Of a DNA stretch of 64,000 bases, positions 30,731 to 64,000 are shown piece by piece. Under the pieces are notes generated by a model. That model worked only from the letters and a program-made list of their open reading frames with translations. It made no database searches and was not told the origin of the DNA. Numbering within the stretch: position 1 is the first letter of the stretch; each line of letters starts with the position of its first letter. The stretch spans positions 194,748 through 258,747 of the forward strand of contig CAZPAW010000002.1 of the NCBI GenBank assembly GCA_964584895.1, written 5' to 3'. This DNA is from an uncultured Candidatus Saccharibacteria bacterium (GTDB lineage: Bacteria > Patescibacteriota > Saccharimonadia > Saccharimonadales > JAGQNJ01). Both the position numbers and the translations under genes were made by a program.

Positions 30731-30739
30731 AATATAAGT

Positions 30740-35931: not shown

Positions 35932-35988
35932 AATTGATCCTTTCTTTTCAGGGTACAAAGGTAACGCCGAAGTGTATTAATAGCTAGC

Positions 35989-39319: not shown

Positions 39320-39346
39320 AAAAACAATTGACTTTCAATTGTTTTT
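39320..39346. promoter_or_regulatory. 12 bp-arm inverted repeat over the -35 of the Type I R-M promoter
   Basis: AAAAACAATTGA-ctt-TCAATTGTTTTT. TTGACT (39328-39333), 17 nt spacer, TATTCT (39351-39356), 6 nt, then ATG at 39363. Confidence 0.45.
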
Positions 39347-39362
39347 CAAGTATTCTCGGGGT

Positions 39363-41446: not shown

Positions 41447-41447
41447 T

Positions 41448-49243: not shown

Positions 49244-49257
49244 AGGAGCAACGACAT

Positions 49258-50712
49258 ATGGACGAAGAGCAATTTCGTAAACTATTCGAAGAAGGCCTAA
49301 TAACCGATAGACCTCCCGAAATGTGGATGCCGATGAATACCAAAGATCGCAAATGGCAGAACTATTACACGGGTCGTGGTGGTGTCACTATGCACTTAGG
49401 CGGTGGCTGGATGATGAATGTCGACACCAACGAATTAGCACAAATAGCCAGTAGCTCAGATGTTGATGAGCAACTTATTAAATCAGTACAGGCAGTATTT
49501 GATGATCTCGGATATGAATATGAAACAGTAAGCGATAAGTTTGGACATGCAATAATTGTGCGTCATCAATTTAGTGTTTTGGGAAGCAAAGCACCATTAA
49601 CTCTAAAATTTAGTGAGTATGGTTTTGACCCTAAGAAAACAATGAATGATGAATTTGAGAATGAACTACATTCCGTCACACCAGATCACATAAAGGTTAG
49701 TGTTAATAATGTACCTGAGTATGACGATGAAGGCGAAGAACTAGGTACCTTCGGAGAAACGGGCTTAGAGTTCACTACTGAAATAGACCAGCCAATAGCG
49801 GCTGATTCTTTTCCGAGTTTTGTTGAAGCAAGGCGTAAAGAAATCGATAAGATACTCAATAAACTGGGTAACTATAGATTTAGCGATGAACCACACAAAG
49901 TTGATCAAGTGTTTTATGATCTGCAAGATGCGCTTGATTCTAAAGAATATAAAAACGCCAAAGGTTCGTTATTGTTCCCAGTAGGAAAGGACGAGTCTGG
50001 AAAGTTTGTTATAGCTGACCTGCATAAATTGCCGCATATTTTGGCCGGTGGGCAAACAGGATCGGGTAAATCAAACTTTACAGAAGGAACACTGATCCTG
50101 AGTCTTTTACATCGCTATTCGTCTGATGAACTTAAGCTTCTGCTGGTCGATCCTAAGATGGTACAGTTCACGCAGTATAATGGCATCCCTCATTTGATCA
50201 AACCAGTTATTACAACTCCAGATGATTCAAAAAATGCTATGGATTGGCTACTGAACGAGACGGAAGATCGGTTCGATACTCTTGCAGACAGTAAATCTAA
50301 GAATATAGAACAATATAACTCATCAGGCAAAGGTCATATGCCATTTGTAGTACTAATCATCGATGAAGTTGCAGACTTGATGATGGTTGACGGTAAGTAC
50401 TATGAGAAATCGTTTATAAAACTGCTACAAAAATCTGCAGCGGTCGGTATTCATATCTACATAGGTACGAGTAGACCAAGTGTGGATGTCCTGCCTGACC
50501 TACTTAGAGCAAACTTCGTTACTAAAATAGCTTTTAAGACGGCTTCTAAAGTTGATAGCGAAGCATTGATTGATGTAGCTGGTGCAGAAAACCTACAAGG
50601 CAGAGGTGACTTACTATTCAGCTCGCTTGATAGCTCTCTCCCAATCCATCTGCAAGCCCCATATGTTTCGGATGAATATATGGCTAAGTACGTGGAGGAC
50701 TTGAAGGCATAG
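49258..50712 (+). CDS. FtsK/SpoIIIE-family DNA translocase ATPase, no membrane domain
   Basis: 484 aa. Walker A GGQTGSGKSN, LLLVDPKMV, Walker B VLIIDEVADLMM. AAAGGAG Shine-Dalgarno upstream. Confidence 0.8.
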   Translation: MDEEQFRKLFEEGLITDRPPEMWMPMNTKDRKWQNYYTGRGGVTMHLGGGWMMNVDTNELAQIASSSDVDEQLIKSVQAVFDDLGYEYETVSDKFGHAIIVRHQFSVLGSKAPLTLKFSEYGFDPKKTMNDEFENELHSVTPDHIKVSVNNVPEYDDEGEELGTFGETGLEFTTEIDQPIAADSFPSFVEARRKEIDKILNKLGNYRFSDEPHKVDQVFYDLQDALDSKEYKNAKGSLLFPVGKDESGKFVIADLHKLPHILAGGQTGSGKSNFTEGTLILSLLHRYSSDELKLLLVDPKMVQFTQYNGIPHLIKPVITTPDDSKNAMDWLLNETEDRFDTLADSKSKNIEQYNSSGKGHMPFVVLIIDEVADLMMVDGKYYEKSFIKLLQKSAAVGIHIYIGTSRPSVDVLPDLLRANFVTKIAFKTASKVDSEALIDVAGAENLQGRGDLLFSSLDSSLPIHLQAPYVSDEYMAKYVEDLKA

Positions 50713-50714
50713 AG

Positions 50715-52235
50715 ATGAGCACTTCGCATGTTTGCCGATTCTGCCTCCGACACAAGCCGCTTACTGTAGCTGGTGTTTGCGATCAGTGTACCAATGATCT
50801 TTTTGCAAATGATGGGAAAGCTTCGATTCAAGGCGTTTCAAAGCTACTAAAGCTAAGTACAGCAACACTCCGAAGGCTCGAATCAACCGGTCAATTAACA
50901 GTCGACAGAAATGAAGCGGGATCACGGCGATATAGCAAGGCGACTATCGAATCGTATATCCTCAAAAGCAGTGATCAGCTAGCTGCTCGACTCACAAAAG
51001 GCAAAGTACAAGAAGTTACAATGGATGAGGTTGAGCAACTATCTGCGCCGTTTTCATCACTGTGTCCACTCTGTAATGACAATGATGTTTTTGATAAGGG
51101 CTACTGCATTGATTGCCTCTCTGACCTTATCAGCAAAGTGGATGCTACTAAGATTCTTGGGATTAGCTTGCCAAGACTAGAACGATTGCTCGAAGAATAC
51201 CCCGACCTTATTCACACCTACCCGTACATGACGCAAGTACGCATGAGTAAACGCGAAGTAGAAAGTTTCTTGGCAAACCAACCCGCTAAAGAAGTTTCGC
51301 GAGGAGCAAGATGGTCAAACCATTTCAGGCAGTGTCGCATATGCAAGACAACCGACAATGAGCATTATGGCGGTGGATATTGTATTGAATGTTACCCAAA
51401 AACAAATGAAGCCAAACTATTAAAAGGCTACCTTGGTGGTGAAAATCTTTCTGAAATAGGAGTGCGTCTAGGCTTTAGTCGAGAACGAGCTAGACAACTA
51501 TTTAACAAAGCAGTTGCAATCGATATTGAGAGACTTGGTGATGTAACTGAATATCGTAAGCAAGAAATACGTGACCAAATTGAACTTACCTATAAACAAA
51601 ATCGTGCAGCACGTGAATTCAAACATATTATCGAAGAAAATTATCAAGAAATAGTCAACAAGTTATCGAGTGAAATAATTATAAGTGAGTCCGGTATTGT
51701 TAAGGCGATCGGTTTACCGCCTAGTGCATCCTACCTAATCGATGAAGAATATCCTGAGTTTTTAGAAATTATAGCCAACAATAAGAATCGTTGGTCGTGG
51801 AAGTATGATGTATGTAGGATGTGCGGTAAGACTGAAGCAAAACACAAAAGATGGGGTTACTGCGAAAACTGTTATACAAGATCTGATGAATGGAAGAAAC
51901 AACAGTACGAATATCGAACTAACAACTACGAAAAGTTTCGTGAACACCAAAAAGCTTATGAGGCGGAGTACCATAAGCGACCCGAAGTTAAAGAGCGCAT
52001 GATTCAAAAAAGTTACAAACGACGTTATGACGGTAAACGTGAGGCAACTATCGAGGCTGATAACTATAAATGTCGTGACTGTGGAATAAATAGAGATGAT
52101 CACAAGGCAAAATATGGCCAAGATCTAGGTGTATTCCATATAGATGGCAATTTAGATAATAATAATCCGTCAAACCTAGTTACATTATGTAAGAGCTGTA
52201 TGGCTAGACGTGGAACGAGCGCAGCCGATGAGTAG
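50715..52235 (+). CDS. multi-zinc-ribbon / HTH / HNH endonuclease protein
   Basis: 506 aa. Four CxxC-x(n)-CxxC units interleaved with HTH-like segments (LSEIGVRLGFSRERARQLFNKA). C-terminal HNH (CRDCG...HIDGN...NLVTLCKSC). Confidence 0.6.
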   Translation: MSTSHVCRFCLRHKPLTVAGVCDQCTNDLFANDGKASIQGVSKLLKLSTATLRRLESTGQLTVDRNEAGSRRYSKATIESYILKSSDQLAARLTKGKVQEVTMDEVEQLSAPFSSLCPLCNDNDVFDKGYCIDCLSDLISKVDATKILGISLPRLERLLEEYPDLIHTYPYMTQVRMSKREVESFLANQPAKEVSRGARWSNHFRQCRICKTTDNEHYGGGYCIECYPKTNEAKLLKGYLGGENLSEIGVRLGFSRERARQLFNKAVAIDIERLGDVTEYRKQEIRDQIELTYKQNRAAREFKHIIEENYQEIVNKLSSEIIISESGIVKAIGLPPSASYLIDEEYPEFLEIIANNKNRWSWKYDVCRMCGKTEAKHKRWGYCENCYTRSDEWKKQQYEYRTNNYEKFREHQKAYEAEYHKRPEVKERMIQKSYKRRYDGKREATIEADNYKCRDCGINRDDHKAKYGQDLGVFHIDGNLDNNNPSNLVTLCKSCMARRGTSAADE

Positions 52236-53682
52236 CTTCACTCATCTTCAGGACCGTTCATATTACGAAGATCGCTACGATGATGGCACTGTAGCAAAAT
52301 GTCGTTCGGGTGAGCGGATTGTTAACGATACTTTCAAGATCATGGAAAAGAAGCTCACAAAAAAAGAGCTGACAGAAAGATTGCCGGGCTGGTATCTCCA
52401 ATATAGTTTGTACTATTTTTGGTTTGTTGAAACGGCAGCTGCTGAACGAGCAGAAAATCGGGAGATTACCATTACGAAGTGGATGGAAGAAGATGAAAAG
52501 AAAGATGACCGCTTAGCCAAAGCTCACATTTCAGGAGGAACTTACTGTCGAACTTGCGGAAAGGACATGGGTGTTATCAGCAAGGACTATATGCGCCGAG
52601 ATAATCGCAAAGACGATGATATCCTCATCATGTTTGAATGCGTAGAATGCAATAAGCGTATGGCACTTTGGGAAGACGGCACAGAATGGGAGGGTGCGAA
52701 GCATGAATGCGAGAAATGTGGCGGTAATACTGTCTCAAAAATCACCAAAAAGTTTGATGTTATTACATGGACTGAGACGTGTGAGAAATGCAAGCATATT
52801 AAAACTGACACAATTGATCTAACGGATACAAAAAGTGAACCAGAACCAGTCGATAAATACCTAGAATTAGACCGTAAACGTTTCGTATTCGACAAAGATA
52901 TGATGTTCAGATACGAGCAAAAGCTCAACCATTTGGTTCGTAGAGCAAAGTTACACGCAACCGAACAAGATAAAGTCGAGCATGTTGATGTATATGATGG
53001 TATCAAGCAAGTTAAGAAGCTCAAGATCGCCCAACTCAAGGAACTACTAGAGCCAATATTCACAAAAGAAGGTTATAGTGACTTCAAACTCGGTGATCCG
53101 CAGATTGGTCGTGAAGTATCGCTTGAATTCAGCTGTCTAGATACTAAAGATGACCGTGAAGAGTACCAAAGCAAGAAAACGCTTCACAAGGCAATTGAGA
53201 AGGCTCTGGAGGAAACTAACTGGCGGTTAATGAGTGCTGGTGTGAGTTACAGGCTCGGATTTTTGACAGGAAGTCTAAGGGCGTACGAAAGTGAAGAAGA
53301 TTTAAAGAAATTAGTCGAGCAATGCATGAAGAAGGGCTACGTTCCGAAAGCAGAGCCTAAAGAACCAGCAGAAACTGACAGTAAGCCAAAAGACGAGTTC
53401 TATAACCGCGATATGCGTGAATCGGTCCTCGTCTATTTCGATAAGTTGACGCTAGGCAGCGTACCAGCTGAGATTACACTCAAAAGCGGAATCGTAAAGC
53501 CGACTAGTCTACCAGTATTGTATGGAGAAATGAACCCACTGTTACGAGTATTTATTCCTATGCGAGATGACGATAATTCGGTGCCAAAGTTTGTTCGAAA
53601 CTACGATTTTAAGTTTGGTGATGACAAGAAAATGGCAAAAGTCCGCAAGGATAGTCGAGGACGCAAGATACGCCTCGTTTAG
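52228..53682 (+). CDS. zinc-ribbon protein, unknown function
   Basis: CRTCGKDM...CVECNKRM and CEKCGG...CEKCKH ribbons. ATG at 52228 overlaps the upstream stop (track GTG start at 52210). Confidence 0.45.
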   Translation: MSSFTHLQDRSYYEDRYDDGTVAKCRSGERIVNDTFKIMEKKLTKKELTERLPGWYLQYSLYYFWFVETAAAERAENREITITKWMEEDEKKDDRLAKAHISGGTYCRTCGKDMGVISKDYMRRDNRKDDDILIMFECVECNKRMALWEDGTEWEGAKHECEKCGGNTVSKITKKFDVITWTETCEKCKHIKTDTIDLTDTKSEPEPVDKYLELDRKRFVFDKDMMFRYEQKLNHLVRRAKLHATEQDKVEHVDVYDGIKQVKKLKIAQLKELLEPIFTKEGYSDFKLGDPQIGREVSLEFSCLDTKDDREEYQSKKTLHKAIEKALEETNWRLMSAGVSYRLGFLTGSLRAYESEEDLKKLVEQCMKKGYVPKAEPKEPAETDSKPKDEFYNRDMRESVLVYFDKLTLGSVPAEITLKSGIVKPTSLPVLYGEMNPLLRVFIPMRDDDNSVPKFVRNYDFKFGDDKKMAKVRKDSRGRKIRLV

Positions 53683-53803
53683 GTGAGCAAAGTGCGGGTT
53701 ATGTTCGTAAAAACTTACTAAATTCGACTAAAAATGAGACATTTCAAATATATGCGTTTCGTGTCTCATTTGTCTCGTTTTGTGTCCTCTGATCCCTGTA
53801 AAA

Positions 53804-53828
53804 GTTCCGTGACCACTATGGGGAGCCA
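53804..53828 (+). repeat. tRNA-3'-end-like att copy (right end of element B)
   Basis: GTTCCGTGACCACTATGGGGAGCCA. It shares ATGGGGAGCCA with 28169-28179. Extended by three bases on the left (53801-53828), it matches 23 of 28 positions of 57130-57157. Confidence 0.65.
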
Positions 53829-54007
53829 TGAGTCTGGCAATAATCTTTAGATTATGGCTAGGCTCATTGTTTTCGGGTCAGACTCAATCAAGACAACACA
53901 TACAAGCTTTAGCTTGTGTGAATGTTGTCGGTACGGTCGGCAAGCCCACGCGCAGAAGCTTGCTTCGAGCATGGGCGCAGTCGTGCAATGCCCCGGCCCC
54001 GGGGGCC

Positions 54008-54052
54008 ATAGACCTGTGAGTAGTTTTCGTTGCTGACAGGTCTATTGTTTTT
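54008..54052 (+). terminator. strong hairpin plus T-run closing a GC-rich non-coding segment
   Basis: ATAGACCTGT(54008-54017)...ACAGGTCTAT(54036-54045) followed by TGTTTTT. Confidence 0.55.
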
Positions 54053-54066
54053 CAGGGGGAGGTAAT

Positions 54067-54696
54067 TTAGTGCGGACCAGTAACTACATCGATTAGCCCG
54101 GTTACTGCAGCCCGAAAATCAACGCCCAAACTCTCTGCGCTTTGATTAGCATCAATATTCAGCACTGTGGCATGCTGACTTAGCTCATCAAGCGCCCGCA
54201 TAGTAGTGTCTGTATCTTGCAGATACCTAGTTTCGGCAAATTCTCGTAGGTTATCGTCATCTGTCATTTCGCCACTTCTTACGCCACGCGCGAGGATACG
54301 AGTTATACTTTCTTCAAGAGAAACCTGTAGCACAAGGACACCGAGAAAATTATGTTTTCCAGAGTCCACAGCATCCATAAATACCTCAACAGCACTGGGG
54401 TGCCGCGGATAGCCATCAATAAGGGCAAGTGTTTGCGCCACCGAATCGTCATCTGGCTGAATTAGCTCAAAAATCGCCTCATTAACAATATCATCAGGTA
54501 GAGGTGATGGCGCTTCTGGATCATTTATAAAATCTTCGACACTCGAGTCACTGCGCCCAGTTCTAATATCTCTCATACGATCTCCTACAGATATGTGCCT
54601 GACCTGATATTTGTATAAGCCTTCTCGTTGGACCAGCTCACATTGTGTTGACTTCCCGGACCCAGGATTTCCGTGTACTACAATTATTTCTGCCAT
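54067..54696 (-). CDS. adenylate/nucleoside-monophosphate kinase-like protein
   Basis: 209 aa. P-loop GNPGSGKSTQ and LIDGYPR (Adk-family motif). TATCTT box lies 6 nt before the ATG. Confidence 0.65.
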   Translation of the reverse strand: MAEIIVVHGNPGSGKSTQCELVQREGLYKYQVRHISVGDRMRDIRTGRSDSSVEDFINDPEAPSPLPDDIVNEAIFELIQPDDDSVAQTLALIDGYPRHPSAVEVFMDAVDSGKHNFLGVLVLQVSLEESITRILARGVRSGEMTDDDNLREFAETRYLQDTDTTMRALDELSQHATVLNIDANQSAESLGVDFRAAVTGLIDVVTGPH

Positions 54697-54752
54697 ACAT
54701 TAAAGATACCAGATATTGCTAAATTATCTATTATAGTATAATATATATTACT

Positions 54753-55181
54753 ATGAATTCATTGGTAAAGGATAGAAAAGTCGTTTTACTGGCTTTTACT
54801 GACGAGCAAGGACTCATCATGTTCAACCGTCGTGCAGATGCTAGTTCTGAGGTGTGGGAGTTAATTGGAGGAAGTGCGAAACAAGGAGAAACTCCCCTAG
54901 AAGCAATCACCCGTGAAATACGAGAAGAGGTCGGATATCAACTTCGTACCAAAAAAGATCAGCTTAGACTTACGAAAGAATTTTTGTATGAATGCAACAA
55001 ATTCAGCGCGACAGTTTACTGTTTTACGGCAATCTTCCCCGGGATAAAGCACTTTAGGGACAGTGATGAGGTATTCGTTAAAGACTTAAAGATGTTTTCT
55101 ATAAAAGATGCTCGCAACTTGATTCTTTTGCCCATGACGAAAATTTTTCTTCAATCTCAAGAAAACCATGTCCGTACTTAG
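54753..55181 (+). CDS. NUDIX hydrolase
   Basis: 142 aa. Nudix box GGSAKQGETPLEAITREIREEVGY. Confidence 0.85.
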   Translation: MNSLVKDRKVVLLAFTDEQGLIMFNRRADASSEVWELIGGSAKQGETPLEAITREIREEVGYQLRTKKDQLRLTKEFLYECNKFSATVYCFTAIFPGIKHFRDSDEVFVKDLKMFSIKDARNLILLPMTKIFLQSQENHVRT

Positions 55182-55872
55182 ATCCGAAAGCGGCGCGAGC
55201 CATCGGGACCTGGATCTCTCTCTTGCGTCTAGCGTCAAAAATTGCTTAATGCCGAACAATGGTGATTTCCTAGTATTAACAGGTAGTTACTCGATTGAAG
55301 CAGTTACGAATGCCCCGAGTATTAGCCATAATGATATAGACATGAACGTGTTCACTGATAACGTTGATAACTCGCAAGCGAGCGCGATCCAAAAAATAAA
55401 CGGGCTGGGGCTTTCTCCAATAAATCAGTCTCAAAGCCGTCTGGAATATGAGCGGGGTGGTTCGCTTGTTGAGCTAGAGTTTGTCCTTTATCATGAAATA
55501 AGCCAAGGAGAAGAAGGGCCAACCTTCAAATTACCGAATGAAAATGGCCATGAAGTGTTTGTTCCCACAACTCAAGCAACGCTTTTAGACACTAACGGAG
55601 GTTCTCACGACTTCTATGTCAAAACTCTGTCCTTTGCGTTAGCGACATGGGCCTTGAGGATATCCGGAGTAGTTGAAGCCCAAAAACGTGCTGTTAGGCA
55701 GTCGGACGAAGACCATTTTAAAGTATTACTGCAAGCCCCTCATGACCGTAGGCTTGTGCTTGAAGCAATCACCCAACACCCACAAATGCCAGCTAATTTT
55801 GCGTGCAGCGCAGATACAGTTTTAGATATGGCGCTACGAGCAATAAAGCCAAATAGGAGCAATAATGATTAG
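55168..55872 (+). CDS. putative minimal nucleotidyltransferase-fold protein
   Basis: 234 aa. LVLTGSYSIEAV...SHNDIDMNVF fits the hG[GS]-x(9-13)-DhD pattern. The start is uncertain (55168 or 55249). Confidence 0.4.
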   Translation: MSVLRSESGASHRDLDLSLASSVKNCLMPNNGDFLVLTGSYSIEAVTNAPSISHNDIDMNVFTDNVDNSQASAIQKINGLGLSPINQSQSRLEYERGGSLVELEFVLYHEISQGEEGPTFKLPNENGHEVFVPTTQATLLDTNGGSHDFYVKTLSFALATWALRISGVVEAQKRAVRQSDEDHFKVLLQAPHDRRLVLEAITQHPQMPANFACSADTVLDMALRAIKPNRSNND

Positions 55873-57052
55873 CGAGAGAACTCTCGTCGGGGTCCCTTTT
55901 TTCGAAAAAGAAGGACAGGATTGTTTGGACGTAACCCTTCAGAACATAAATAGATGTCTTGCGACACTTGCCATCGATGCCGTTGTAGTCGTACAAGTAA
56001 ATGGTCCTGAAACGGCTAGTGGTCATAGTGTTTCACTCACAGCGAATACGAGTCAACTTAATGCTGAAGTCGAGATATTGGAAAGCGATAGAGTCGGTCA
56101 AGCACACGCAGTTGACGATCTTATAGAAATCGCCAAATCAAGAGGAATACAACGTGCATTTTTGACAGACGCCGATATATATCGCTTCCCGGACTCAATG
56201 CGAAACATGTGGGATTCTCAAAGTTGTGCTGTGGTTGGAGCAAGTTACCGGCCATACCCAATTGAAGTAGTTGAGGCACAGTTCGGTAGGCTAAACCTAG
56301 AAGAGAGACTACTTTATCAGATATTTGACGGTGATCAATCTCCGACCATACGTAGATCGATGGGTGAATATGGAATTCATAAACAAAATCGAGTAAAAGC
56401 ATCATTGATGCTTGTTGATGTGGACGAAACTACTGGCATGCATGACGGGCAAGACATCACGACTGACAGTGTAATGAATAGAATGCTGGGTCAAACTAAG
56501 ACTTCAGTAGCTACCGATGCTTTCTTTATGCACATGGGGCGTGTTGACATGACTGATCATATACAAGCGCGGCTTCGTCATTTTATGGCAGCTGCTGCAA
56601 GGGAAGAGCTGAACACCTTTCTTGACCAAGAGTTCCAGCTTCCGAAGGTGGATCTAATGGATGCCATCGCACAAAACGTAAGAGACCATGAACCCGATGG
56701 TGATTTTATAGCAATGCTATACCTCTCAAGGTGTGCTGTACGTGAAAAAGTTAATAGCATTTGTCTTGATATCGCATCTGGGGAATGGGACCAATCAAAG
56801 CTAGGCGAGGTTGACCCTATTAGCATGCAAGACATAAAAAACTATGCGGATGCTTGTCGCGCGATATCTCGTTTCTTCGTAGACATTGATTGGGGTTTAA
56901 TTGAAGGCTTAAAGGATGGCCCACCCCCAGTAACTCAAGAACGATTACGTCAGCCTTTTGATGTGGAAAAAATTATGTCGGATCATAATCTATTACAAAT
57001 TGCGTTAGATAGTTTTGGCTTTGTTTCGGGAGCATCATTAAGTCTTTCTTGA
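55865..57052 (+). CDS. putative GT-A-fold glycosyltransferase-like protein
   Basis: 395 aa. LVGVPFFEKEG at the N-terminus and a FLTDADIYRF DxD-like motif. GGAG Shine-Dalgarno upstream. Weak assignment. Confidence 0.4.
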   Translation: MISERTLVGVPFFEKEGQDCLDVTLQNINRCLATLAIDAVVVVQVNGPETASGHSVSLTANTSQLNAEVEILESDRVGQAHAVDDLIEIAKSRGIQRAFLTDADIYRFPDSMRNMWDSQSCAVVGASYRPYPIEVVEAQFGRLNLEERLLYQIFDGDQSPTIRRSMGEYGIHKQNRVKASLMLVDVDETTGMHDGQDITTDSVMNRMLGQTKTSVATDAFFMHMGRVDMTDHIQARLRHFMAAAAREELNTFLDQEFQLPKVDLMDAIAQNVRDHEPDGDFIAMLYLSRCAVREKVNSICLDIASGEWDQSKLGEVDPISMQDIKNYADACRAISRFFVDIDWGLIEGLKDGPPPVTQERLRQPFDVEKIMSDHNLLQIALDSFGFVSGASLSLS

Positions 57053-57132
57053 TTTCATCCCTAGCGGATGACAAGACACTTCTCACTATAGGCATTTTGA
57101 GTCTCATTTGTACCATTTTACCCCCGATAAAA

Positions 57133-57157
57133 GGTCCGTGACCTGTATGTTGAGCCA
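57133..57157 (+). repeat. tRNA-3'-end-like att copy
   Basis: GGTCCGTGACCTGTATGTTGAGCCA followed by AGCATAAGC. Confidence 0.6.
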
Positions 57158-57212
57158 AGCATAAGCGTTTTGAGGAAGATGCTAATCAGCCTCTTTTTGT
57201 TATCATAGACTT

Positions 57213-57953
57213 ATGAAGTTTCTACAGTGGAATATTTGGTATAAAGAAAAAGCAGACAACATTGTCGAACTAATCAAGAAGCTCAACCCCGATGTAGTCT
57301 GCCTCCAAGAACTAGCTATCGGCCCGCACGTTAACCCGGGCATTCCTGATGTTGCTCAGTACATAGCCGAAAAGACGGGTCTACATTATTATTTTGAGGA
57401 AGCTCAGCGATGGGCGGGCGATGATGAGATGGATGCTATCGGTAATGGGATATTCACTAAGCGCCCGATTACTCGACGCTTCGCAAAACATGTGCAAGCA
57501 CCAACTGAAGACTTCACTGATTACGCTCATGAGGGACGCATTTATGTTGAATGTGATATCGAGATAAATGGAAAGACTATTACAATTGGTACAGCCCATC
57601 TCTCTTACACGCACCGATTTGAGATTACAGAAGAAAAGAAAGCAGAAGTAGATAACCTATTAGCTATTGTTGGCACGCATAAGCAAAACTTCATCTTCTC
57701 TGGCGACCTCAACTCCGAGCCAACATCGTACACTATCCAAAAATTATCGAAACTCCTTCAAAGCTGTGGCCCAAATTTTTCACAAAATACCTGGACAACC
57801 AAACCATTCGAGCACCAAGGCTTTAAAGCTAGCACCCTCGACTGGCGGCTCGATTACGTTTTCGCTTCTGAAGATATCAAATGTAGTTCAGCTGAAATTA
57901 TTAGTACGGATTACTCAGACCATCTCCCGATACTAGTGAATGTTGAACTGTAA
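57213..57953 (+). CDS. endonuclease/exonuclease/phosphatase (EEP) family protein
   Basis: 246 aa. MKFLQWNIW, VVCLQE and a C-terminal SDHLPILVNV. TATCAT box lies 6 nt before the ATG. Confidence 0.8.
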   Translation: MKFLQWNIWYKEKADNIVELIKKLNPDVVCLQELAIGPHVNPGIPDVAQYIAEKTGLHYYFEEAQRWAGDDEMDAIGNGIFTKRPITRRFAKHVQAPTEDFTDYAHEGRIYVECDIEINGKTITIGTAHLSYTHRFEITEEKKAEVDNLLAIVGTHKQNFIFSGDLNSEPTSYTIQKLSKLLQSCGPNFSQNTWTTKPFEHQGFKASTLDWRLDYVFASEDIKCSSAEIISTDYSDHLPILVNVEL

Positions 57954-57958
57954 ATACA

Positions 57959-57987
57959 GTTCAAACTTCCGTCACTACCGAGAGCCA
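57959..57987 (+). repeat. tRNA-3'-end-like att copy
   Basis: GTTCAAACTTCCGTCACTACCGAGAGCCA. A second, degenerate copy (GTTCTGACTTTTTGCATACCCAGAGTAG) lies 35 nt downstream at 58023-58050. Confidence 0.6.
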
Positions 57988-58127
57988 AGGTTAGAAAGTA
58001 AAAAGCCTGAACCGTTAATTCAGTTCTGACTTTTTGCATACCCAGAGTAGAGTTGAAACCGTGTTTGTAAATGCTTATGCTTCGATATTAACCCAGCGTA
58101 AAGTAAAATTACTTCAAGGAGAAAAAC

Positions 58128-59300
58128 ATGAATTTTAGTGTAGGAGAAACAATTACAATACCGAGTCCAATAGACGTACACGCTCATTTGCGTGAACCAG
58201 GCGGAGAAACCAAAGAGACAATCGAAAGCGGAACGCATGCTGCTTTAATGGGTGGTTATCAAGCAGTGTTTGATATGCCTAACAACCCTAATGGTATGCA
58301 GACTTGGAGTGAGGAGCGAATTGACCAGAAAGTTGACATCGCCAAAAGTGACGCACATACACACATTGGTTTTTATGCAGGAGTTAATCTTGAAGAACCT
58401 GCACTGGAAGAATTTTCTGGAATGGTCACAAAAGCAGCAGGTCTTAAAATATACATGGGTCACACTACGGGCAATGTGAAAGAGCACGACCTTGAAGTTG
58501 CACGACCCTCTATTGACGCTTGGATTAAAGCAACTAGAGCTTCTGGTCAGGACGCAAATCCTCCAATCCTCCTTCATGCAAGAGAGGGTGTTGGAGAAGA
58601 GACGGCTGAATATATTGCAAGCCAAGGTTATCCTGTGCATTGGTGTCACCTATCAACCAATACGGAGGCACAAAGTGCTGGTAAATTGACAAGTCTTTAC
58701 CCTGAGTTTTTCACGGCTGGCGTTACTCCACATCACTTAACAATGACCGATAGAGACGCTGATTTTAAGTATGGTTGGAATGGTGCCAGAATGATGCCAC
58801 CACTTGGTAAAGAAGTAGATGGAGACGCCCTTTTGAGTGCTTTTAATAAGGGTCAGATTCAGATTCTAGAAACAGACCACGCACCACATACAGCAGAAGA
58901 CAAACAACGAGCCGAGGAAGAAAACCCCGAAGGACACGATAGAGTTGACTGCACAACGTGCTTTGGGGTTAGTGGCATAGAATTTGTGCTGCCGGTTATG
59001 ATGAGTCTAGTTCAAAGAAATAAGCTCTCAATGGATCGACTAGTAGAGGGTTTGTACAACGAACCAGCAAGAATGCTCGGTATTGTTGCGACTGGGCGTG
59101 CTAGTACAGAAATTGTTATCAGACCTTATGAGATTGGCGGTGATGATAGACAAGGAATGAGTCGCAATAATCCGTATGTTGGTTGGACTGCATGGGGCAG
59201 AGTTAGTAAAGTTACGATTGACGGAAACGTCAAACAAGACAACGGTAGGTATGCCCAAAAAGGGGGCAATAGAATTTTAAGGGCGGGAGCGGAGGTTTAA
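58128..59300 (+). CDS. pyrC: dihydroorotase-like amidohydrolase
   Basis: 390 aa. IDVHAHLREPG (HxH), FDMPN and ETDHAPH. AAGGAGAAAAAC Shine-Dalgarno region upstream. Confidence 0.8.
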   Translation: MNFSVGETITIPSPIDVHAHLREPGGETKETIESGTHAALMGGYQAVFDMPNNPNGMQTWSEERIDQKVDIAKSDAHTHIGFYAGVNLEEPALEEFSGMVTKAAGLKIYMGHTTGNVKEHDLEVARPSIDAWIKATRASGQDANPPILLHAREGVGEETAEYIASQGYPVHWCHLSTNTEAQSAGKLTSLYPEFFTAGVTPHHLTMTDRDADFKYGWNGARMMPPLGKEVDGDALLSAFNKGQIQILETDHAPHTAEDKQRAEEENPEGHDRVDCTTCFGVSGIEFVLPVMMSLVQRNKLSMDRLVEGLYNEPARMLGIVATGRASTEIVIRPYEIGGDDRQGMSRNNPYVGWTAWGRVSKVTIDGNVKQDNGRYAQKGGNRILRAGAEV

Positions 59301-59302
59301 TT

Positions 59303-60283
59303 ATGGCAAATGCAGAATATGCTGTTGCAGGAGTAGAGCTAGAAGCACCATTACTCAATGCAGCAGGTTCTATAAATGGTCCTAACGCAGAGGGTCTACT
59401 TCGCGAAGTTGATTTACTAGCGAATACAGGTATTGGGGCTATCACTGTGGGTTCATTCACCATTCCACGACAAGAGGGAAACGAGGCAAAGTACGGAAGT
59501 CCTACTTATTACCATGATTCTACCGAGGGTAAAACATATAACTCAATGGGTTTGCCAAATATCGGTATAGAGGAGGCACTAGCTTTAGCTCCTGCTGTGC
59601 TTAGTCGCTCCCATGACAAAGGGAAGCCAGTAGTATTTAGTGGATCACCGACCGTCTCTCCTGAAAGCGGTAGTTCTGTAGAGCAAGCACGCAATTTAGT
59701 TTATGAATTCCTGCAAACGGGAGCTGACTTAGTAGAACTGAACGTCTCATGTCCTAATGTGGTTACAGAGGGTGGTGGCAGAAAACCAATAATGGGTTAC
59801 GACTTAGAAAGTATGGCTGAGCTTGTTGACGTTCTAGCGTCAGAAGTTGGTGAAGGACAACGAATTGGCGTTAAGCTACCACCTTATGTTTCCGATGAAG
59901 AAAAGCTGTTAATTCCTGATGTGGCTAAGATTTTACGAGCTAAGAATGTATTCAGTTTCTTAGTGACAGCCAATACAATTCCAAACCAGATTGCTCGAAA
60001 CGCAGACGGCGATCCTATTCTAACCGTTCCAAATGGTGCAGGTGGTATGAGTGGTCCAGCCACAAAAGAGGTTGGTCGTGAGCAATTGAAAATGTGGTAC
60101 GAACAAATGGGTGATAGGTTGGATATTGTCAGTGCATTGGGTGTTGATAGCGGGCAAGAAGTACAAGTAAGACGCTCACTTGGTGCTGTTGCGGCAAAGG
60201 GCGTCACATTCTTATGGGAGAGTGATAATTGGGCTTCCAAAGTTTCTAGCGTGTTGTACGAATACGCTGGCGCAATAGAGTAA
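59303..60283 (+). CDS. pyrD: dihydroorotate dehydrogenase, class 1-like
   Basis: 326 aa. LLNAAGS, ELNVSCPN (Cys active-site loop) and GGMSGPA. GGAGG Shine-Dalgarno upstream. Confidence 0.8.
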   Translation: MANAEYAVAGVELEAPLLNAAGSINGPNAEGLLREVDLLANTGIGAITVGSFTIPRQEGNEAKYGSPTYYHDSTEGKTYNSMGLPNIGIEEALALAPAVLSRSHDKGKPVVFSGSPTVSPESGSSVEQARNLVYEFLQTGADLVELNVSCPNVVTEGGGRKPIMGYDLESMAELVDVLASEVGEGQRIGVKLPPYVSDEEKLLIPDVAKILRAKNVFSFLVTANTIPNQIARNADGDPILTVPNGAGGMSGPATKEVGREQLKMWYEQMGDRLDIVSALGVDSGQEVQVRRSLGAVAAKGVTFLWESDNWASKVSSVLYEYAGAIE

Positions 60284-60352
60284 TGCAATAACCAGTCAAT
60301 TTAAACTGATCGACACCTAATTGTAAGCTAAATCTTTCTTAATTGCAGTTAT

Positions 60353-60376
60353 AACTTCCTCTATGGTTGTGAGCCA
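60353..60376 (+). repeat. tRNA-3'-end-like att copy
   Basis: AACTTCCTCTATGGTTGTGAGCCA followed by AGTATAAGC. Confidence 0.55.
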
Positions 60377-60432
60377 AGTATAAGCTTTATTAGCAAAGAG
60401 GTAGAAATACCGCTATTTGCTATCATAAGTTC

Positions 60433-60921
60433 ATGGCTAAGAAAAACTATCTTGTTGAAGGCGTATCGGGGACTGGCAAAACCTCTGTTGCTGAAGATCT
60501 AACCAGGCGTGGCTATAAAGTTGTCCATGGTGACCGGGAGTTAGCTTATGTCGGTGATCCTCAAACAGGCGAACCGATAGAGAACGGGGAGCATGAAAAC
60601 TGGCTTTGGGATGTTAAAAAGGTCAAAAAGCTAGTCGAGGACAAGGATGACAAAGTATTATTCTTTTGTGGTGGCTCAAGAAACTTCAAGCAATTTATTC
60701 ATCTCTTTGACAACGTATTTATACTAGACGTCGACAATGAGACCTTACGTAAACGATTAGAAGCTCGCCCTGATGACGAGTGGGGTAATGAGAACGAAAC
60801 AGAGCTAGCTTTGCGACATAACCAAACTAAAGAAAGTATCCCGAGTGACGGTGTTATCATCGACGCCACCAAGCCACTCGCCATGGTTGTAGATGAAATC
60901 ATAAGTTTATCTGAAAAATAG
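60433..60921 (+). CDS. P-loop kinase-like protein (AAA/NMP-kinase fold)
   Basis: 162 aa. Walker A GVSGTGKTSV. TATCAT box lies 6 nt before the ATG. Confidence 0.55.
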   Translation: MAKKNYLVEGVSGTGKTSVAEDLTRRGYKVVHGDRELAYVGDPQTGEPIENGEHENWLWDVKKVKKLVEDKDDKVLFFCGGSRNFKQFIHLFDNVFILDVDNETLRKRLEARPDDEWGNENETELALRHNQTKESIPSDGVIIDATKPLAMVVDEIISLSEK

Positions 60922-60949
60922 TTCTGACTTCCGCAAACACCGAGAGCTA
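60921..60949 (+). repeat. tRNA-3'-end-like att copy
   Basis: GTTCTGACTTCCGCAAACACCGAGAGCTA followed by AGCATAAGC, then the hairpin GACCT-gcaa-AGGTC plus T5 (60966-60984). Confidence 0.6.
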
Positions 60950-61006
60950 AGCATAAGCGGTATGTGACCTGCAAAGGTCTTTTTCCTTATGAGGTATACT
61001 TAGGTA

Positions 61007-61360
61007 ATGTCAGAATCGCTGAAGCTTGCAAAAGATTACATTGGTAAAAATGTACGCGTTGAGGTTGATAGACCGCTAGGAAGCAAGCATCCAGAATATG
61101 ATTATGAGTATTTAGTGAACTATGGCTTTGTGCCAGGTACTAAAGCACCTGATGGTGAAGAATTAGACGCATATATACTTGGTATTGGTAAGCCACTACA
61201 GTCGTTTGAAGGTAAATGTATAGCAGTAGTTCACAGGAAAGATGATGACGACGACAAGTTAGTCGTTGTAGCCGAGGACAGCGAAGGCATCACTGACGAA
61301 GCGATTATAGGGCAGGTTCACTTTCAAGAATCATGGTTTAATTCTGTAATCGTAAGATAG
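61007..61360 (+). CDS. short inorganic-pyrophosphatase-like protein
   Basis: 117 aa. VDRPLGSKHP, NYGFVPGT and DGEELDAYILG resemble family I PPase core motifs (DGDPLD). TATACT box lies 6 nt before the ATG. Confidence 0.5.
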   Translation: MSESLKLAKDYIGKNVRVEVDRPLGSKHPEYDYEYLVNYGFVPGTKAPDGEELDAYILGIGKPLQSFEGKCIAVVHRKDDDDDKLVVVAEDSEGITDEAIIGQVHFQESWFNSVIVR

Positions 61361-61388
61361 TCCGAACTTCCAACACTACCGAGAGCCA
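61360..61388 (+). repeat. tRNA-3'-end-like att copy
   Basis: GTCCGAACTTCCAACACTACCGAGAGCCA followed by AGCATAAGC, then the hairpin GAGACC-tcatgag-GGTCTC plus T4. Confidence 0.6.
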
Positions 61389-61452
61389 AGCATAAGCAAT
61401 TTGAGACCTCATGAGGGTCTCTTTTAATTCTTCATGAGGTATACTTATTGGT

Positions 61453-61800
61453 ATGATTAACCAAACTTTTCAAGATGCAATCGATGCCACAAGACAATCT
61501 ATTACTCGCTTTCAAAAAATCGAAGGAAAACCGTGGGGTGTAGAAGGGGCAATTATAGAGCTTGCAAAACAAGTTGGCGATCTTGCAGCTTTAGTAATGA
61601 ACGAAGAGGGTTATTATTTCGCCAATAGGAATGAGCAAAGTGAGAAGTATGCATCATCGAAAGACAGTATTGCTGATGAGCTTGCTGACATCATGTTTGC
61701 CGTTGTGAGAATTGCAGACCACTACGGAATTGACCTGGTAGCAACGAATATAAAAACACGAAAAAAGGAAGATAAGTTTTTAAAAACAAAAGGCGTTTAA
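61453..61800 (+). CDS. MazG-like nucleotide pyrophosphohydrolase
   Basis: 115 aa, all-alpha. EGAIIELAKQVGDLA and ADELADIMFAVVRIADHYGIDL. Confidence 0.7.
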   Translation: MINQTFQDAIDATRQSITRFQKIEGKPWGVEGAIIELAKQVGDLAALVMNEEGYYFANRNEQSEKYASSKDSIADELADIMFAVVRIADHYGIDLVATNIKTRKKEDKFLKTKGV

Positions 61801-61803
61801 GAT

Positions 61804-62184
61804 ATGCTTACATACAAAGGAGTCCTCATTAGTCAGTCCGTAGTAAACCCTGAAAACATCCTCAAACTAGTCAACGTAATTTCTTCTCGTGATACAACCC
61901 TAGAAGGTGAGTCATTTCGTGGTAAGGTAAAGTTCCATAATCTTGAGGTTTCCGAAGATAATCTCTGGCCAGTACTTGAGCGTGTTGCCGATTCCATAAA
62001 ATCACCAGGTTGGTATTTTCACTTGGTAAACGAGGAGCGTCTCTATATCGTTATGTCCCAAGCTATTCTATTTGCTAGTGAAGATAATAAGGAGCTGCAA
62101 GCAATTGTTGATTACGCAGCTAGCCATGGCATACATCCCGACCAGCTAAATCTAAAACAATTGTTTGCAAACCCCTACGCATAG
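61804..62184 (+). CDS. hypothetical protein
   Basis: 126 aa. Starts 3 nt after the MazG-like stop. No family recognised. Confidence 0.45.
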   Translation: MLTYKGVLISQSVVNPENILKLVNVISSRDTTLEGESFRGKVKFHNLEVSEDNLWPVLERVADSIKSPGWYFHLVNEERLYIVMSQAILFASEDNKELQAIVDYAASHGIHPDQLNLKQLFANPYA

Positions 62185-62186
62185 AA

Positions 62187-62213
62187 GTTCGAATTTCCGC
62201 CCACCGAGAGCCA
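62187..62213 (+). repeat. tRNA-3'-end-like att copy (closest to a real T-loop)
   Basis: GTTCGAATTTCCGCCCACCGAGAGCCA, compared with the tRNA-Asn GTTCGAGTCCGACCCCGGGAGCCA. Confidence 0.6.
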
Positions 62214-62307
62214 AGCATTATCACTTCAGCTATTTAAAGGGTATCTTTTTGTTACAATAATGATTTCAAGTATTGTTTATTATACTTTTTTATGATATAA
62301 TTATACT

Positions 62308-62982
62308 ATGATTAAGACAGTTGCTAGTCGACGGCAAGCACATAAAGGGCCGACCACAAGCAGATGTGCAGATGCCCTTGTTGCGCGTTACGGGTTCGAA
62401 TCACTTGATGATATGGCAGCGAGTATCCCCGAAGAAGCTCACGTTCTTGATGTGGGTGCTGGCCTTTCTGACCTGGGTAACGAAGTTGCCAGTCGTAGGC
62501 CTGATATTCATTGGTTAAATCTTGACGCTTACTACAATTCTATTGGTCATGAATCAAATATGGGTTGGCGTTTTGATAGACTTACCACTACTGCACCTGA
62601 AAATGTTGAATATCTAAGTGGCTCTATACTCGACCTTGATGACTCTTTTAAGCATAGATGCTTTGCTCGAATTTTCAGTTACTATGTACTCCCGTATATC
62701 GCCCGAGGTAACCGTGGGAATGCTTTGATTGCCATGCATAACATGCGAGCAATTAGCTTACCCGGGGGAATTATAAGCATAGGCCCAATACCAGACGATT
62801 ACGACCCGGCAATTTCATTCATAGTCCCTCACGATGACCAACCATTCGATATCACTCCATTAACGCAAGCTGTTTGGTATCAGCAAGGCGAGCTAGATTA
62901 CGAGGGGGGTCTTACTTCAGATGCAGCTACAGCATTAATAGAAGATTATGGGGGCGGTGGAAAGCTCGTAGTTACAACCTAG
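62308..62982 (+). CDS. class I SAM-dependent methyltransferase
   Basis: 224 aa. Motif I VLDVGAGLSDLG. TATAAT box lies 6 nt before the ATG. Confidence 0.65.
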   Translation: MIKTVASRRQAHKGPTTSRCADALVARYGFESLDDMAASIPEEAHVLDVGAGLSDLGNEVASRRPDIHWLNLDAYYNSIGHESNMGWRFDRLTTTAPENVEYLSGSILDLDDSFKHRCFARIFSYYVLPYIARGNRGNALIAMHNMRAISLPGGIISIGPIPDDYDPAISFIVPHDDQPFDITPLTQAVWYQQGELDYEGGLTSDAATALIEDYGGGGKLVVTT

Positions 62983-63010
62983 TTCAGACATCAATCACCA
63001 CCAAGAGACA
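62982..63010 (+). repeat. degenerate tRNA-3'-end-like att copy
   Basis: GTTCAGACATCAATCACCACCAAGAGACA followed by AGTATAC. Confidence 0.45.
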
Positions 63011-63098
63011 AGTATACACACAGCCAGATAACTAAATGGTTTTGATTGGAATACAGTACAAATATTGATATATTTAATTTAGTAAAGTAAAAATAAAA

Positions 63099-64000
63099 AT
63101 GACAGAAATATTAGATACAAAAGAATTAGAAGCTCAAAGATCGCCTCGTCCACCACAGCAAGAAAAACCAGTAGAAAAATTTATAGATAGTCGAGGAATT
63201 GAGCGTCGTAGTGACTATCCGATTGTTCTTCTAGATCGAGAAGCAGAGCAAGCAATCGATGACTACTACAAAGAACATGACCAGTTAGCAGATACTACCG
63301 AAGCTACTATTGACGAGGCCAAGCAGCTTGAGACCGTAGATGTCTCAGAGGATAGATTCCTAAAAGCTATTACACTTGATTTATCGCCCACTACTAGCCC
63401 CCAAGAAGAAGGTAGCCAAAAAGATACATCAACCGAAGAAGACGGCACTGAACATCTCTCAGAAAATCAGAGTCTTCTTAAAGAACTCACTGATGACGTT
63501 GAAGCTATTGACTCTGAGATAAGAGATATTGCGGTCTTCCCGCCAGATGCCTCTTTTAAAGATTTAAAAGCATTCTACGAAGGTTTACCAGAAAAAGTAC
63601 GTGTATTTATCGACCAAGACGGCGGACCACCAGAATTCGGTCTTGGCGTCCGTTTTAGCGGAGGTAAAAAAAGCTCATTGAGAGTAAAGATTATCTTAGG
63701 ACTAGACCGTTATGAATCTGACCTAAAAGAACGTAGACGATTAGGGAGCAAGAAATTAGCTGAAGAATTAGCCGATCAATTGGCCGATGGTTTGGGCGAA
63801 GCTGCAGCAGAACTTGGAATCACAGTGCCTGAAACATGTCAGTTTTCAGAGTATGAATCTCCTGAAAGCCAAGAAAAAGTGCAGCAAGGCAAGACTCCGA
63901 CTGAAAATATAGCCTTACTAGATAAAAATCTGGCAAGAATGCGCGATATTGAACAGATAGACGGTCAGATTGAGGCAGCATCAGAAGTAATTGCCGCAGC
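63099..64000 (+). CDS. acidic hypothetical protein, 5' part (open to the window end)
   Basis: Own translation from the ATG at 63099 gives MTEILDTKELEAQRSPRPPQQEKPVEKFIDSRGIERRSDYPIVLLDREAEQ... with no stop through base 64000. Absent from the track because it is truncated. Confidence 0.5.
   Translation, partial: MTEILDTKELEAQRSPRPPQQEKPVEKFIDSRGIERRSDYPIVLLDREAEQAIDDYYKEHDQLADTTEATIDEAKQLETVDVSEDRFLKAITLDLSPTTSPQEEGSQKDTSTEEDGTEHLSENQSLLKELTDDVEAIDSEIRDIAVFPPDASFKDLKAFYEGLPEKVRVFIDQDGGPPEFGLGVRFSGGKKSSLRVKIILGLDRYESDLKERRRLGSKKLAEELADQLADGLGEAAAELGITVPETCQFSEYESPESQEKVQQGKTPTENIALLDKNLARMRDIEQIDGQIEAASEVIAA

Follow-up and report, generated by a model that had tools for sequence, protein, structure and literature searches.

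A tRNA-Asn-anchored array of small recombinase-less gene cassettes in Saccharibacteria, and a large serine recombinase as a candidate for its mobilization

The genomes of Saccharibacteria measure about 1 Mb, these bacteria rely on bacterial hosts, and their ways of acquiring genes are poorly understood. Here, we analyzed a stretch of 64,000 nucleotides (nt), the window, from a contig of an uncultured Candidatus Saccharibacteria bacterium (CAZPAW010000002.1, positions 194,748 to 258,747), in which small groups of genes between 53.8 and 63 kb are each followed by a short site ending in GAGCCA. We consider it likely that small mobile cassettes, none of them with a recombinase, form an array here, and that this array makes up the distal portion of an insertion region whose anchor is the 3′ end of a tRNA-Asn gene. 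Comparison of related arrays showed cassette-level exchange with breakpoints at GAGCCA (±1 to 2 nt), and we infer that site-specific, not homologous, exchange is the main process. The recombinase would be supplied in trans; its leading candidate, to which we give somewhat less than an even chance, is the conserved large serine recombinase (LSR) of prophage-like elements next to the tRNA. A preliminary description of this DNA had offered two explanations, serial insertion at one tRNA site or an integron-like system of cassettes mobilized in trans, and our data support both as two sides of one system.

The sites were located by direct reading of 53.5 to 64 kb, with a repeat finder, by alignment of the copies, and with an nhmmer site profile. 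Nine had been listed in the preliminary description, and seven of these are solid. Six (53804-53828, 57133-57157, 57959-57987, 60921-60949, 61360-61388, and 62187-62213) were seen as described in the sequence and by the repeat finder, and the copy placed at 60353-60376 is real but starts 5 nt further 5′, at 60348 (GTTATAACTTCCTCTATGGTTGTGAGCCA). The copy at 62982-63010, already called degenerate, gave a weak, decayed match only (nhmmer E of ~0.004 to 0.006). The one at 58023-58050, interpreted before as an empty slot, is no site but the 3′ arm of a hairpin (..CCTGAACCGTTAATTCAGTTCTGACTTTTT) of a type that recurs at cassette 5′ ends of other arrays (AAGTCAGAAC-loop-GGTTCTGA). With up to 3 mismatches, GAGCCAAGCATAAGC occurs 7 times in the window versus 1.7 expected, and 7 occurrences were reached in 0 of 100 shuffles. 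All profile matches in the window are confined to 53.8 to 63.0 kb and to the plus strand, and every site lies just 3′ of a stop codon and terminates in GAGCCA. Positions 1 to 53.7 kb of the window gave no profile match, so the motif is not dispersed over ordinary intergenic regions, in line with what had been noted for the core genes.

The resemblance to a tRNA 3′ end that had been claimed for the sites holds in part. Their last 6 to 8 nt (G[A/G]GAGCCA) equal the acceptor end, discriminator, and CCA of the tRNA-Asn, and their GTTCRAA equals its T-loop. Nevertheless, the 29-nt sites exceed the true tRNA 3′ end by 4 to 5 nt, and no fold is conserved: 27 diverse sites gave a consensus of −0.79 kcal/mol without any covarying pair (RNAalifold), on account of which the idea of a tRNA-like RNA was dropped. 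Rfam reported the true tRNA only over the whole window, and no inverted repeat or attC-like palindrome was found within the sites by the repeat finder. As they have neither fold nor covariation, the sites appear to be conserved as DNA sequence, and they are most simply read as protein-binding recombination sites. Classes of 25 and 29 nt occur together in the window array. We also considered the extra 4 to 5 nt of the longer class as a difference in half-site geometry between attP and attB, and abandoned this because the ends of the LSR elements have the 25-nt, tRNA-like spacing.

The sites divide the segment into the following units, whose genes were identified with Pfam.

53829..57157, plus strand: cassette 1, with an adenylate-kinase-like gene (on the minus strand), a NUDIX gene, and genes for unknown proteins of 234 and 395 amino acids (aa); 25-nt-class site at 57133-57157 (Pfam, repeats, nhmmer).
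57158..57987, plus strand: cassette 2, with AGCATAAGC and a terminator hairpin, a TATCAT −10 box, and a leaderless Exo_endo_phos gene; 29-nt site at 57959-57987.
57988..60376, plus strand: cassette 3, with a dihydroorotase-like amidohydrolase gene and a dihydroorotate dehydrogenase gene; site at 60348-60376, of the GTTATAACTTCC.. subtype; the hairpin arm at 58023-58050 belongs to this unit.
60377..60949, plus strand: cassette 4, with a gene for a 162-aa P-loop nucleoside/nucleotide kinase; site at 60921-60949 (Pfam).
60950..61388, plus strand: cassette 5, with a gene for a 117-aa pyrophosphatase-like protein; terminator at 60966-60979; site at 61360-61388 (Pfam, nhmmer).
61389..62213, plus strand: cassette 6, with genes for a MazG-like protein (115 aa) and an unknown protein (126 aa); terminator at 61403-61421; site at 62187-62213 (Pfam, nhmmer).
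62214..63010, plus strand: cassette 7, with a gene for a 224-aa protein that has no Pfam match; decayed site at 62982-63010.
63011..64000, plus strand: start of the next unit, a 675-aa open reading frame (ORF) running past the window end.

The layout common to these cassettes is AGCATAAGC with a terminator hairpin, a −10 box, the leaderless gene or genes, and the site ending in GAGCCA. Its parts had been pointed out before and are all readable in the sequence, namely the AGCATAAGC/AGTATAAGC stretch following most sites, the hairpins with a T-run, and a −10 box 6 to 7 nt before the ATG; this last spacing implies leaderless mRNAs. Hairpins with a T-run follow the sites at 61403-61421 and 60966-60979. 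A generic promoter and terminator scan showed no enrichment over shuffles, though it detected two post-site terminators. From these features, every window cassette is predicted to have its own promoter and 5′ terminator, unlike the promoterless cassettes of integrons. The first gene of cassette 3 (genes at 58128-60283) has a Shine-Dalgarno sequence, AAGGAGAAAAACATG, unlike the other cassettes, and the site subtype of this cassette was also found in L031, L034, L039, L048, and L022 (L-numbers denote the contigs and loci compared). Among the window cassette proteins, Pfam recognized no recombinase, as had been stated. The Saccharibacteria lineage is usually described as lacking de novo nucleotide synthesis, and the cargo here (dihydroorotase, dihydroorotate dehydrogenase, kinases, NUDIX, MazG, and pyrophosphatase) points to cassette exchange as a means of tuning nucleotide metabolism. 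On L001, a contig near-identical to the window, the array goes on with two more sites (15014-15056 and 16162-16196) around SWEET and Peptidase_S51 genes, and past the last sites the core resumes with a class Ib tRNA synthetase gene.

Arrays of this kind are found well beyond the window. A strict-pattern scan of a genome collection yielded L009, a contig of a Candidatus Saccharibacteria metagenome-assembled genome that carries 9 to 10 same-strand sites in 8 kb. A scan with ACTANNGRGAGCCAAGCATAAGC (a 20.5-base pattern, for which ~2 chance matches were estimated with an assumed collection size) yielded 37 metagenome contigs from soil, groundwater, and other habitats, and the profile search found arrays in most of them. 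Over 40 loci with sites, none had sites on mixed strands. The 60 intervals between sites range from 178 nt to 10.8 kb (median, 819 nt), 87 of the 103 array ORFs point the same way as the sites, and the median distance from stop codon to the end of GAGCCA is 43 nt. The sites fall into the classes GTTGCGAAGTACGTCCACTAGGGGGAGCCA, GTTCTAACTTCCATCACTACGGAGAGCCA, GTTATAACTTCCTCTATCGTTGTGAGCCA, and the 25-nt class GGTTCAWGACCnnnATGnnGAGCCA. In 48 of ~100 sites from many habitats, GAGCCA is followed by AGCATAAGCAC, which runs into a terminator hairpin; the stems of these post-site hairpins differ between copies (CACTTTGT/ACAAAGTG, CACTATG/CATAGTG) with pairing kept. The cargo is diverse, as 54 Pfam families were found in 59 array proteins, including RelE, Fic, HD, HAD, methyltransferases, and Peptidase_S51. 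No recombinase was recognized by Pfam among these 59 proteins, which include a single rve fragment of insertion-sequence type, and the large ORFs beside the arrays in L024, L032, L033, L034, and L037 are no recombinases either. Scans of viral contigs for the site gave chance-like single matches or none.

The preliminary description had named polymorphism of single cassettes with breakpoints at GAGCCA as a test of mobility, and such polymorphism, in both order and presence, was observed in L009, L029, L043, L045, and L058. L043 is 98% identical to L009, and yet the L009 segments 6932-7603, 1903-2435, and 4761-4943 are contiguous in it (X+Y+Z); in L009 they stand kilobases apart in another order (Y..Z..X). 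In L029, L009 414-940 is joined directly to 2419-2803, with three cassettes missing. Cassette order is thus not always identical among related strains, since L043 and L029 both differ from L009. L045 and L058 have one cassette in common (89% identity) between unrelated flanks. Base-level comparison placed the switches inside GAGCCA(AG), such that the site travels with the upstream cassette, and AGCATAAGC and the hairpin with the downstream one. When the oriented loci were compared all against all, 8 of 9 internal ends of homology blocks were no more than 25 nt away from a GAGCCA end, a zone that makes up only 2.4% of the sequence (binomial p of ~1e-12).

Exchange can also be traced for the kinase cassette of the window. 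Its homologues, at 74 to 77% identity, reside in other arrays (L069 and L066) with different neighbors (acetyltransferase and Peptidase_S51), and the homology begins at the −10 box and reaches the 3′ site. Apart from a few contigs of Saccharibacteria type, the kinase (60433-60921) has its nearest homologues, at 60 to 65% identity, mostly in Actinobacteria (Nocardioides, Terrabacter, Cellulomonas, and Spirillospora), with some in Alphaproteobacteria. Actinobacteria are known hosts of Saccharibacteria episymbionts, and the similarity hints at gene capture from the host lineage. Just ahead of the kinase cassette of L069 (positions 1560-1640), a true 18-nt tRNA-Asn 3′ fragment (ATCCAGTCCCCGGAGCCA) lies inside the array, which shows that some insertions duplicated real tRNA sequence instead of the mimic.

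Upstream of the array, the window contains core genes, the tRNA-Asn gene, and two large elements.

11728-12231: smpB, directly upstream of the tRNA-Asn gene (SmpB Pfam match).
12379..12453, plus strand: tRNA-Asn(GTT), ending in ..CCGGGAGCCA (ARAGORN, Rfam).
12454..28179, plus strand: LSR element 1, starting right after GAGCCA with GACCCAGCACTAAC..GTAGACCAGGTTCCTAGACCTGG hairpin; right-end 25-nt site at 28155-28179, GGTTCAAGACCCGCATGGGGAGCCA.
Genes of element 1: LSR at 15133-16431 (minus strand), TerL-like at 18428-19882, ParB-methylase at 20276-21598, and helicase/SMC-like (Pfam, PHROGs).
28180..53828, plus strand: LSR element 2, with left end GACCAAGCAGAGAAAAACGTAGACCTAGTTCCTAGACC; its right end is the site 53804-53828.
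Genes of element 2: P-type ATPase cargo, LSR at 32555-33838 (minus strand), TerL-like at 35989-37446, ParB-methylase, type I restriction-modification, and FtsK-like at 49258-50712.

The core genome occupies 1 to 12.2 kb (ATP synthase, glycosyltransferase, and smpB by Pfam), and no recombinase was found in window positions 1 to 12 kb. The whole insertion region is anchored on the tRNA-Asn gene, which would be its primary attachment site. A co-oriented tRNA-Asn(GTT) likewise heads the array in 10 metagenome loci; all of these tRNAs end in GGAGCCA, with smpB upstream where it is visible. From 12454 to 53828, the window is occupied by two tandem, related prophage-like elements sharing a backbone of LSR, large terminase, and ParB-methylase. 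Both start directly after GAGCCA with GACC(C/A)AGCA..GTAGACCnGGTTCCTAGACC and finish in a 25-nt mimic of the tRNA end. The right end of element 2 is 53804-53828, and hence the first site listed in the preliminary description is the end of this element. Upstream of 53828, L001 carries other DNA than the window, and the two sequences come together precisely at GAGCCA|TGAGTCTGG. Cassette 1 resembles the right end of an LSR element over its last ~70 nt (repeats D5 and D6). Being the largest insertions, which we read as the newest, and adjoining the tRNA, the LSR elements support serial insertion at this site.

The two LSRs, at 15133-16431 and 32555-33838, are the only recombinases found in the window, in agreement with the preliminary description. 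They contain Resolvase, Recombinase, and Zn_ribbon_recom domains (Pfam), and their closest relative among solved structures is YokA, an SPbeta-type integrase. The large terminase of both elements belongs to phrog_38. With Pfam and PHROGs, no capsid or tail genes were recognized in either of these prophage- or satellite-like elements, and no primase or polymerase was seen. The cargo of the two elements is of the defense and resistance type: a HEPN protein, a PLD-helicase, an SMC-like ATPase, type I restriction-modification, a P-type ATPase, and an FtsK-like translocase. Toward the right end of element 2, the FtsK-like gene has as its neighbor a gene for a 506-aa protein (50715-52235) with N-terminal MerR/HTH and sigma-70 region 4-like motifs and an HNH-endonuclease-like C terminus; a neighboring 490-aa protein has no matches. 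About 80 to 200 nt inside the left end of each element (12530-12650 and 28305-28370), there are degenerate tRNA-end-like pieces (GGTTCGAGTCTGATTC, GGTTCTAAGCCTGAC, and TTACCCCTGTAATTTAGTTCGAACCCAGCC..GGAGCAAGCAC), which may represent remnants of earlier junctions or additional binding sites. Next to the tRNA, the gene at 12707-13786 was considered as an integrase and rejected, as Pfam identifies an aldo-keto reductase.

Several lines of evidence connect the LSR with the cassettes. More than 120 cluster representatives match the window LSR at ≥69% identity, and several of them are named Saccharimonadales or Saccharibacteria. In all five Saccharimonadales genomes in which its neighborhood was compared (L072, L073, L075, L076, and L077), an LSR homologue lies 0.6 to 8.5 kb downstream of smpB-tRNA-Asn on the opposite strand, and after GGAGCCA of the tRNA comes the conserved left end also seen in the window. 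The same left junction occurs in two IMG/VR contigs (L059 and L061) after a site identical to 53804-53828, the right-end site of element 2. Furthermore, small cassettes (RibD_C, Gly-zipper protein, and MazG-like; HD) ending in the same 25-nt class come after the right end of the LSR element in L075 and L077, and CCACTAnGGGGAGCCA is common to cassette sites and LSR-element ends. Because the LSR elements adjoin tRNA-Asn, use the same GAGCCA junction, and carry the same kind of right-end site, the LSR is the best candidate for an enzyme acting in trans. Regarding other enzymes, no tyrosine recombinase was found in the scanned window ORFs, in the array loci, or within 10 kb of the LSR in the five genomes. 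When the window LSR was compared by phmmer with every ORF of the metagenome loci, the sole result was a distant homologue, in an unrelated insertion in L039.

Two further observations concern the insertion points in these relatives. In L073 and L075, a long insertion interrupts the anticodon loop of the tRNA-Asn beside smpB (flipped coordinates ~1700-2700 and ~2470-3050, respectively), and ARAGORN misses both genes; the insert of L073 may contain an ORF. These intron-bearing tRNA genes still serve as insertion points, and the split fits group I introns reported in Patescibacteria tRNA-Asn (PMC13011429). The LSR in L039 is a different protein of 500 aa, 30% identical to that of the window, and resides in an insertion of ~5 kb (oriented 1106-6414) between homologues of window genes 8389-8814 and 8911-9480, that is, at a second hotspot unrelated to tRNA-Asn.

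A number of points weigh against this account of the array and its enzyme. Action of the LSR on the sites and excision of cassettes are both deduced from sequence comparison. Canonical large serine integrases recombine attP with attB only, and internal array junctions would be attP-like hybrids, so cassette shuffling would need a relaxed or a different enzyme; relaxed site pairing has been reported for the recombinases of staphylococcal cassette chromosome (SCC) elements. The composite sites reconstructed from LSR-element and cassette ends show no clear dyad symmetry, with a best complementarity of 0.38 to 0.41 versus 0.25 by chance, and cassette classes differ greatly in the sequence to the right of GAGCCA. 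In many cases, an array follows tRNA-Asn directly and an LSR is lacking within 10 to 13 kb (L031, L034, and L052). The ninth breakpoint, at a degenerate site (L009 414/L029), has its switch in the left portion of the site, the outcome expected from homologous recombination between copies. Finally, six near-identical contigs of the window's strain all have one cassette order, and the mobility of the window cassettes is therefore deduced from relatives.

Some of these points would be accommodated by a cassette system as described that relies on an enzyme other than the LSR. A recombinase encoded elsewhere in the genome, for example a tyrosine recombinase of Xer-like or another type, could recombine the junctions as equivalent simple sites, with the LSR elements merely targeting the same tRNA end. 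Such an enzyme would agree with junctions that are all alike, with the frequent arrays that have no LSR nearby, with the canonical rules that bar an LSR from recombining internal junctions, and with the difference in length between the 29- to 30-nt site classes and the 25-nt class at LSR-element ends. Nonetheless, no tyrosine recombinase was seen in the window, in the array loci, or up to 10 kb from the LSR in the five genomes, both site classes stand together in the window array, and cassette sites share CCACTAnGGGGAGCCA with LSR-element ends, and on balance we think this alternative unlikely. It is improbable, in our judgment, that the units are instead eroded remnants of successive LSR elements, with sites that are fossil attR halves and with reordering by RecA-type homologous recombination, possibly after natural transformation. 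Accretion and decay would explain why the last ~70 nt of 53829-57157 are homologous to an LSR-element right end, why 25-nt-class sites equal LSR-element ends, the breakpoint in the left part of one site, the true tRNA-Asn fragment within the L069 array, and the decayed sites (62982; L009 414), and tycheposon islands show such remnants and partial tRNAs (10.1101/2020.12.28.424599). On the other hand, both the 5′ and the 3′ ends of cassettes are precise and conserved, and random deletion would not give 5′ ends with AGCATAAGCAC after GAGCCA in 48 of ~100 sites. Units of 178 to 400 nt with complete ends are common as well, and the permutation between L043 and L009 and the cassette of L045/L058 need excision and reinsertion with only 7 to 17 nt shared at the junctions.

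The remaining alternatives make the sites something other than targets of such a recombinase. If they were RNA or transcription signals, that is, tRNA-like 3′-untranslated-region elements for processing (RNase P or Z, or the CCA-adding enzyme) or for termination, this would suit their position on the coding strand a median of 43 nt past stop codons, just ahead of a terminator hairpin, and their tRNA-like GCCA end. We regard this as very improbable, since Rfam finds the true tRNA only, the 27 sites have neither a stable consensus fold (−0.79 kcal/mol) nor a covarying pair, the 29-nt sites are 4 to 5 nt too long for a tRNA 3′ half, and both the homology breakpoints at GAGCCA and the array start at tRNA-Asn would be left unexplained. 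Practically no weight is given to a classical integron or CALIN (a cluster of attC sites without integron integrase), or to a generic intergenic repeat of the repetitive extragenic palindrome (REP) or miniature inverted-repeat transposable element (MITE) type. The short, co-oriented cassettes, with their 3′ sites and a varied cargo that includes toxin-antitoxin genes, recall the former, but there is no IntI-type tyrosine recombinase and no attC-like imperfect palindrome, and the cassettes have their own promoters; a REP or MITE repeat is at odds with the absence of the motif from the other 53.7 kb of the window and with sites that are never in mixed orientation.

Returning to the tRNA-anchored array of mobile cassettes, we propose the following mode of operation. 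The 5′ end of a cassette, AGCATAAGC(AC) and variants, would run into an intrinsic terminator and insulate the cassette from upstream transcription, and its own −10 promoter would drive a leaderless mRNA of one to four genes. The 25- to 30-nt 3′ site mimics tRNA-Asn in its T-loop and acceptor end, with GAGCCA as the final bases, and recombination both joins and separates cassettes within GAGCCA. By this means the tRNA is left intact and all junctions alike, and cassettes can be lost, gained, and reordered. New DNA would enter at the tRNA and shift older units outward, which would place the large elements beside the tRNA and the small cassettes beyond. The cargo would consist of diverse accessory genes, in the window mostly for nucleotide metabolism.

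We put forward, tentatively, that Saccharibacteria and perhaps other bacteria of the candidate phyla radiation (CPR) possess a lineage-wide, independently evolved gene-capture platform at the tRNA-Asn 3′ end, with cassettes moved in trans by a prophage-borne serine recombinase. If true, such a platform would give ultra-small episymbionts a dedicated route to accessory genes, including those from actinobacterial hosts, and a conserved tRNA-anchored array of plug-in cassettes would be a major part of the flexible genome of Saccharibacteria. A defined 45-bp site and a candidate recombinase would also be potential genetic tools for CPR bacteria. The testable question raised is whether a prophage-borne serine integrase mobilizes integrase-less mini-cassettes. 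The preliminary description knew of no system of this kind, and the full-text literature, within an incomplete coverage, likewise yielded no description of such arrays in Saccharibacteria or Patescibacteria.

Among known systems, the architecture is integron-like. Both consist of long co-oriented arrays of cassettes of one to a few genes that lack a recombinase and are exchanged at sites; both have a recombination site at the 3′ end of each cassette and one fixed primary site at the array head, a crossover at a fixed point of a short conserved core whose following bases belong to the next cassette, and very diverse cargo including toxin-antitoxin genes. However, the features that define integrons are lacking here: IntI, a folded attC, and promoterless cassettes. 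No IntI-type recombinase was found in the scanned window ORFs, the 59 array proteins, and the gene tables of the five genome loci. Integron attC sites are folded imperfect inverted repeats (R″-L″..L′-R′) with a GTTRRRY core, whereas the sites here are primary-sequence mimics of the tRNA-Asn 3′ end with a GAGCCA core and no dyad axis. The head site is the end of a tRNA gene instead of attI, the cassettes are predicted to bring their own terminator and promoter where integron cassettes mostly share Pc, and the candidate enzyme is a serine recombinase on a prophage-like element, not the tyrosine recombinase IntI. The array would be a second, independently evolved answer to the problem that integrons solve.

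Integrase-less, site-bounded units moved by an enzyme encoded elsewhere are also known from the accretion-mobilization of cis-mobilizable elements (CIMEs) by integrative and conjugative elements (ICEs) in Streptococcus and from the pdif modules of Acinetobacter plasmids. CIMEs resemble our cassettes in this respect but are few and large, and pdif modules are bounded by inverted XerC/D sites on plasmids; neither makes long co-oriented arrays anchored at a tRNA.

As to mechanism, the system is probably closer to SCC or tycheposon islands, with mobilization in trans. In SCC and psi-SCC, which use the large serine recombinases CcrAB or CcrC at the rlmH 3′ end, recombinase-less units lie beside LSR-bearing ones and are thought to be moved in trans (10.1101/336396; PMC6222049). 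Similar to the array, SCC elements accrete in tandem at the 3′ end of a conserved housekeeping gene that is kept intact, the LSR resides on an element integrated at this 3′ end (here in the window and in five of five other genomes), and direct repeats of the target end flank all units, those lacking a recombinase among them. By contrast, the target is tRNA-Asn here and rlmH in staphylococcal and enterococcal SCC, the units here are far more numerous with a median of ~0.8 kb versus 3 to 60 kb, and the sites have their own consensus conserved across habitats. Among solved structures, the LSR here is closest to YokA.

Tycheposons of Prochlorococcus integrate at tRNA genes, push older elements deeper, and leave partial tRNAs and cargo remnants scattered, and some of them use large serine recombinases (10.1101/2020.12.28.424599). 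Their islands share with the array integration at a tRNA gene, serial displacement, leftover partial tRNA (the 18-nt fragment in L069), and cargo that acts as plug-in cassettes in a streamlined genome. They differ in that tycheposons are units of 5 to 15 kb with their own integrase and replication modules, neither of which the cassettes carry; the units here are mostly single genes with precise, conserved ends on both sides, and the repeats form a distinct family of mimics, not exact tRNA fragments. Taken together, the array is set apart from SCC and tycheposons by its single-gene units, by the layout of 5′ terminator, promoter, and 3′ mimic, and by the conservation of the mimic across habitats.

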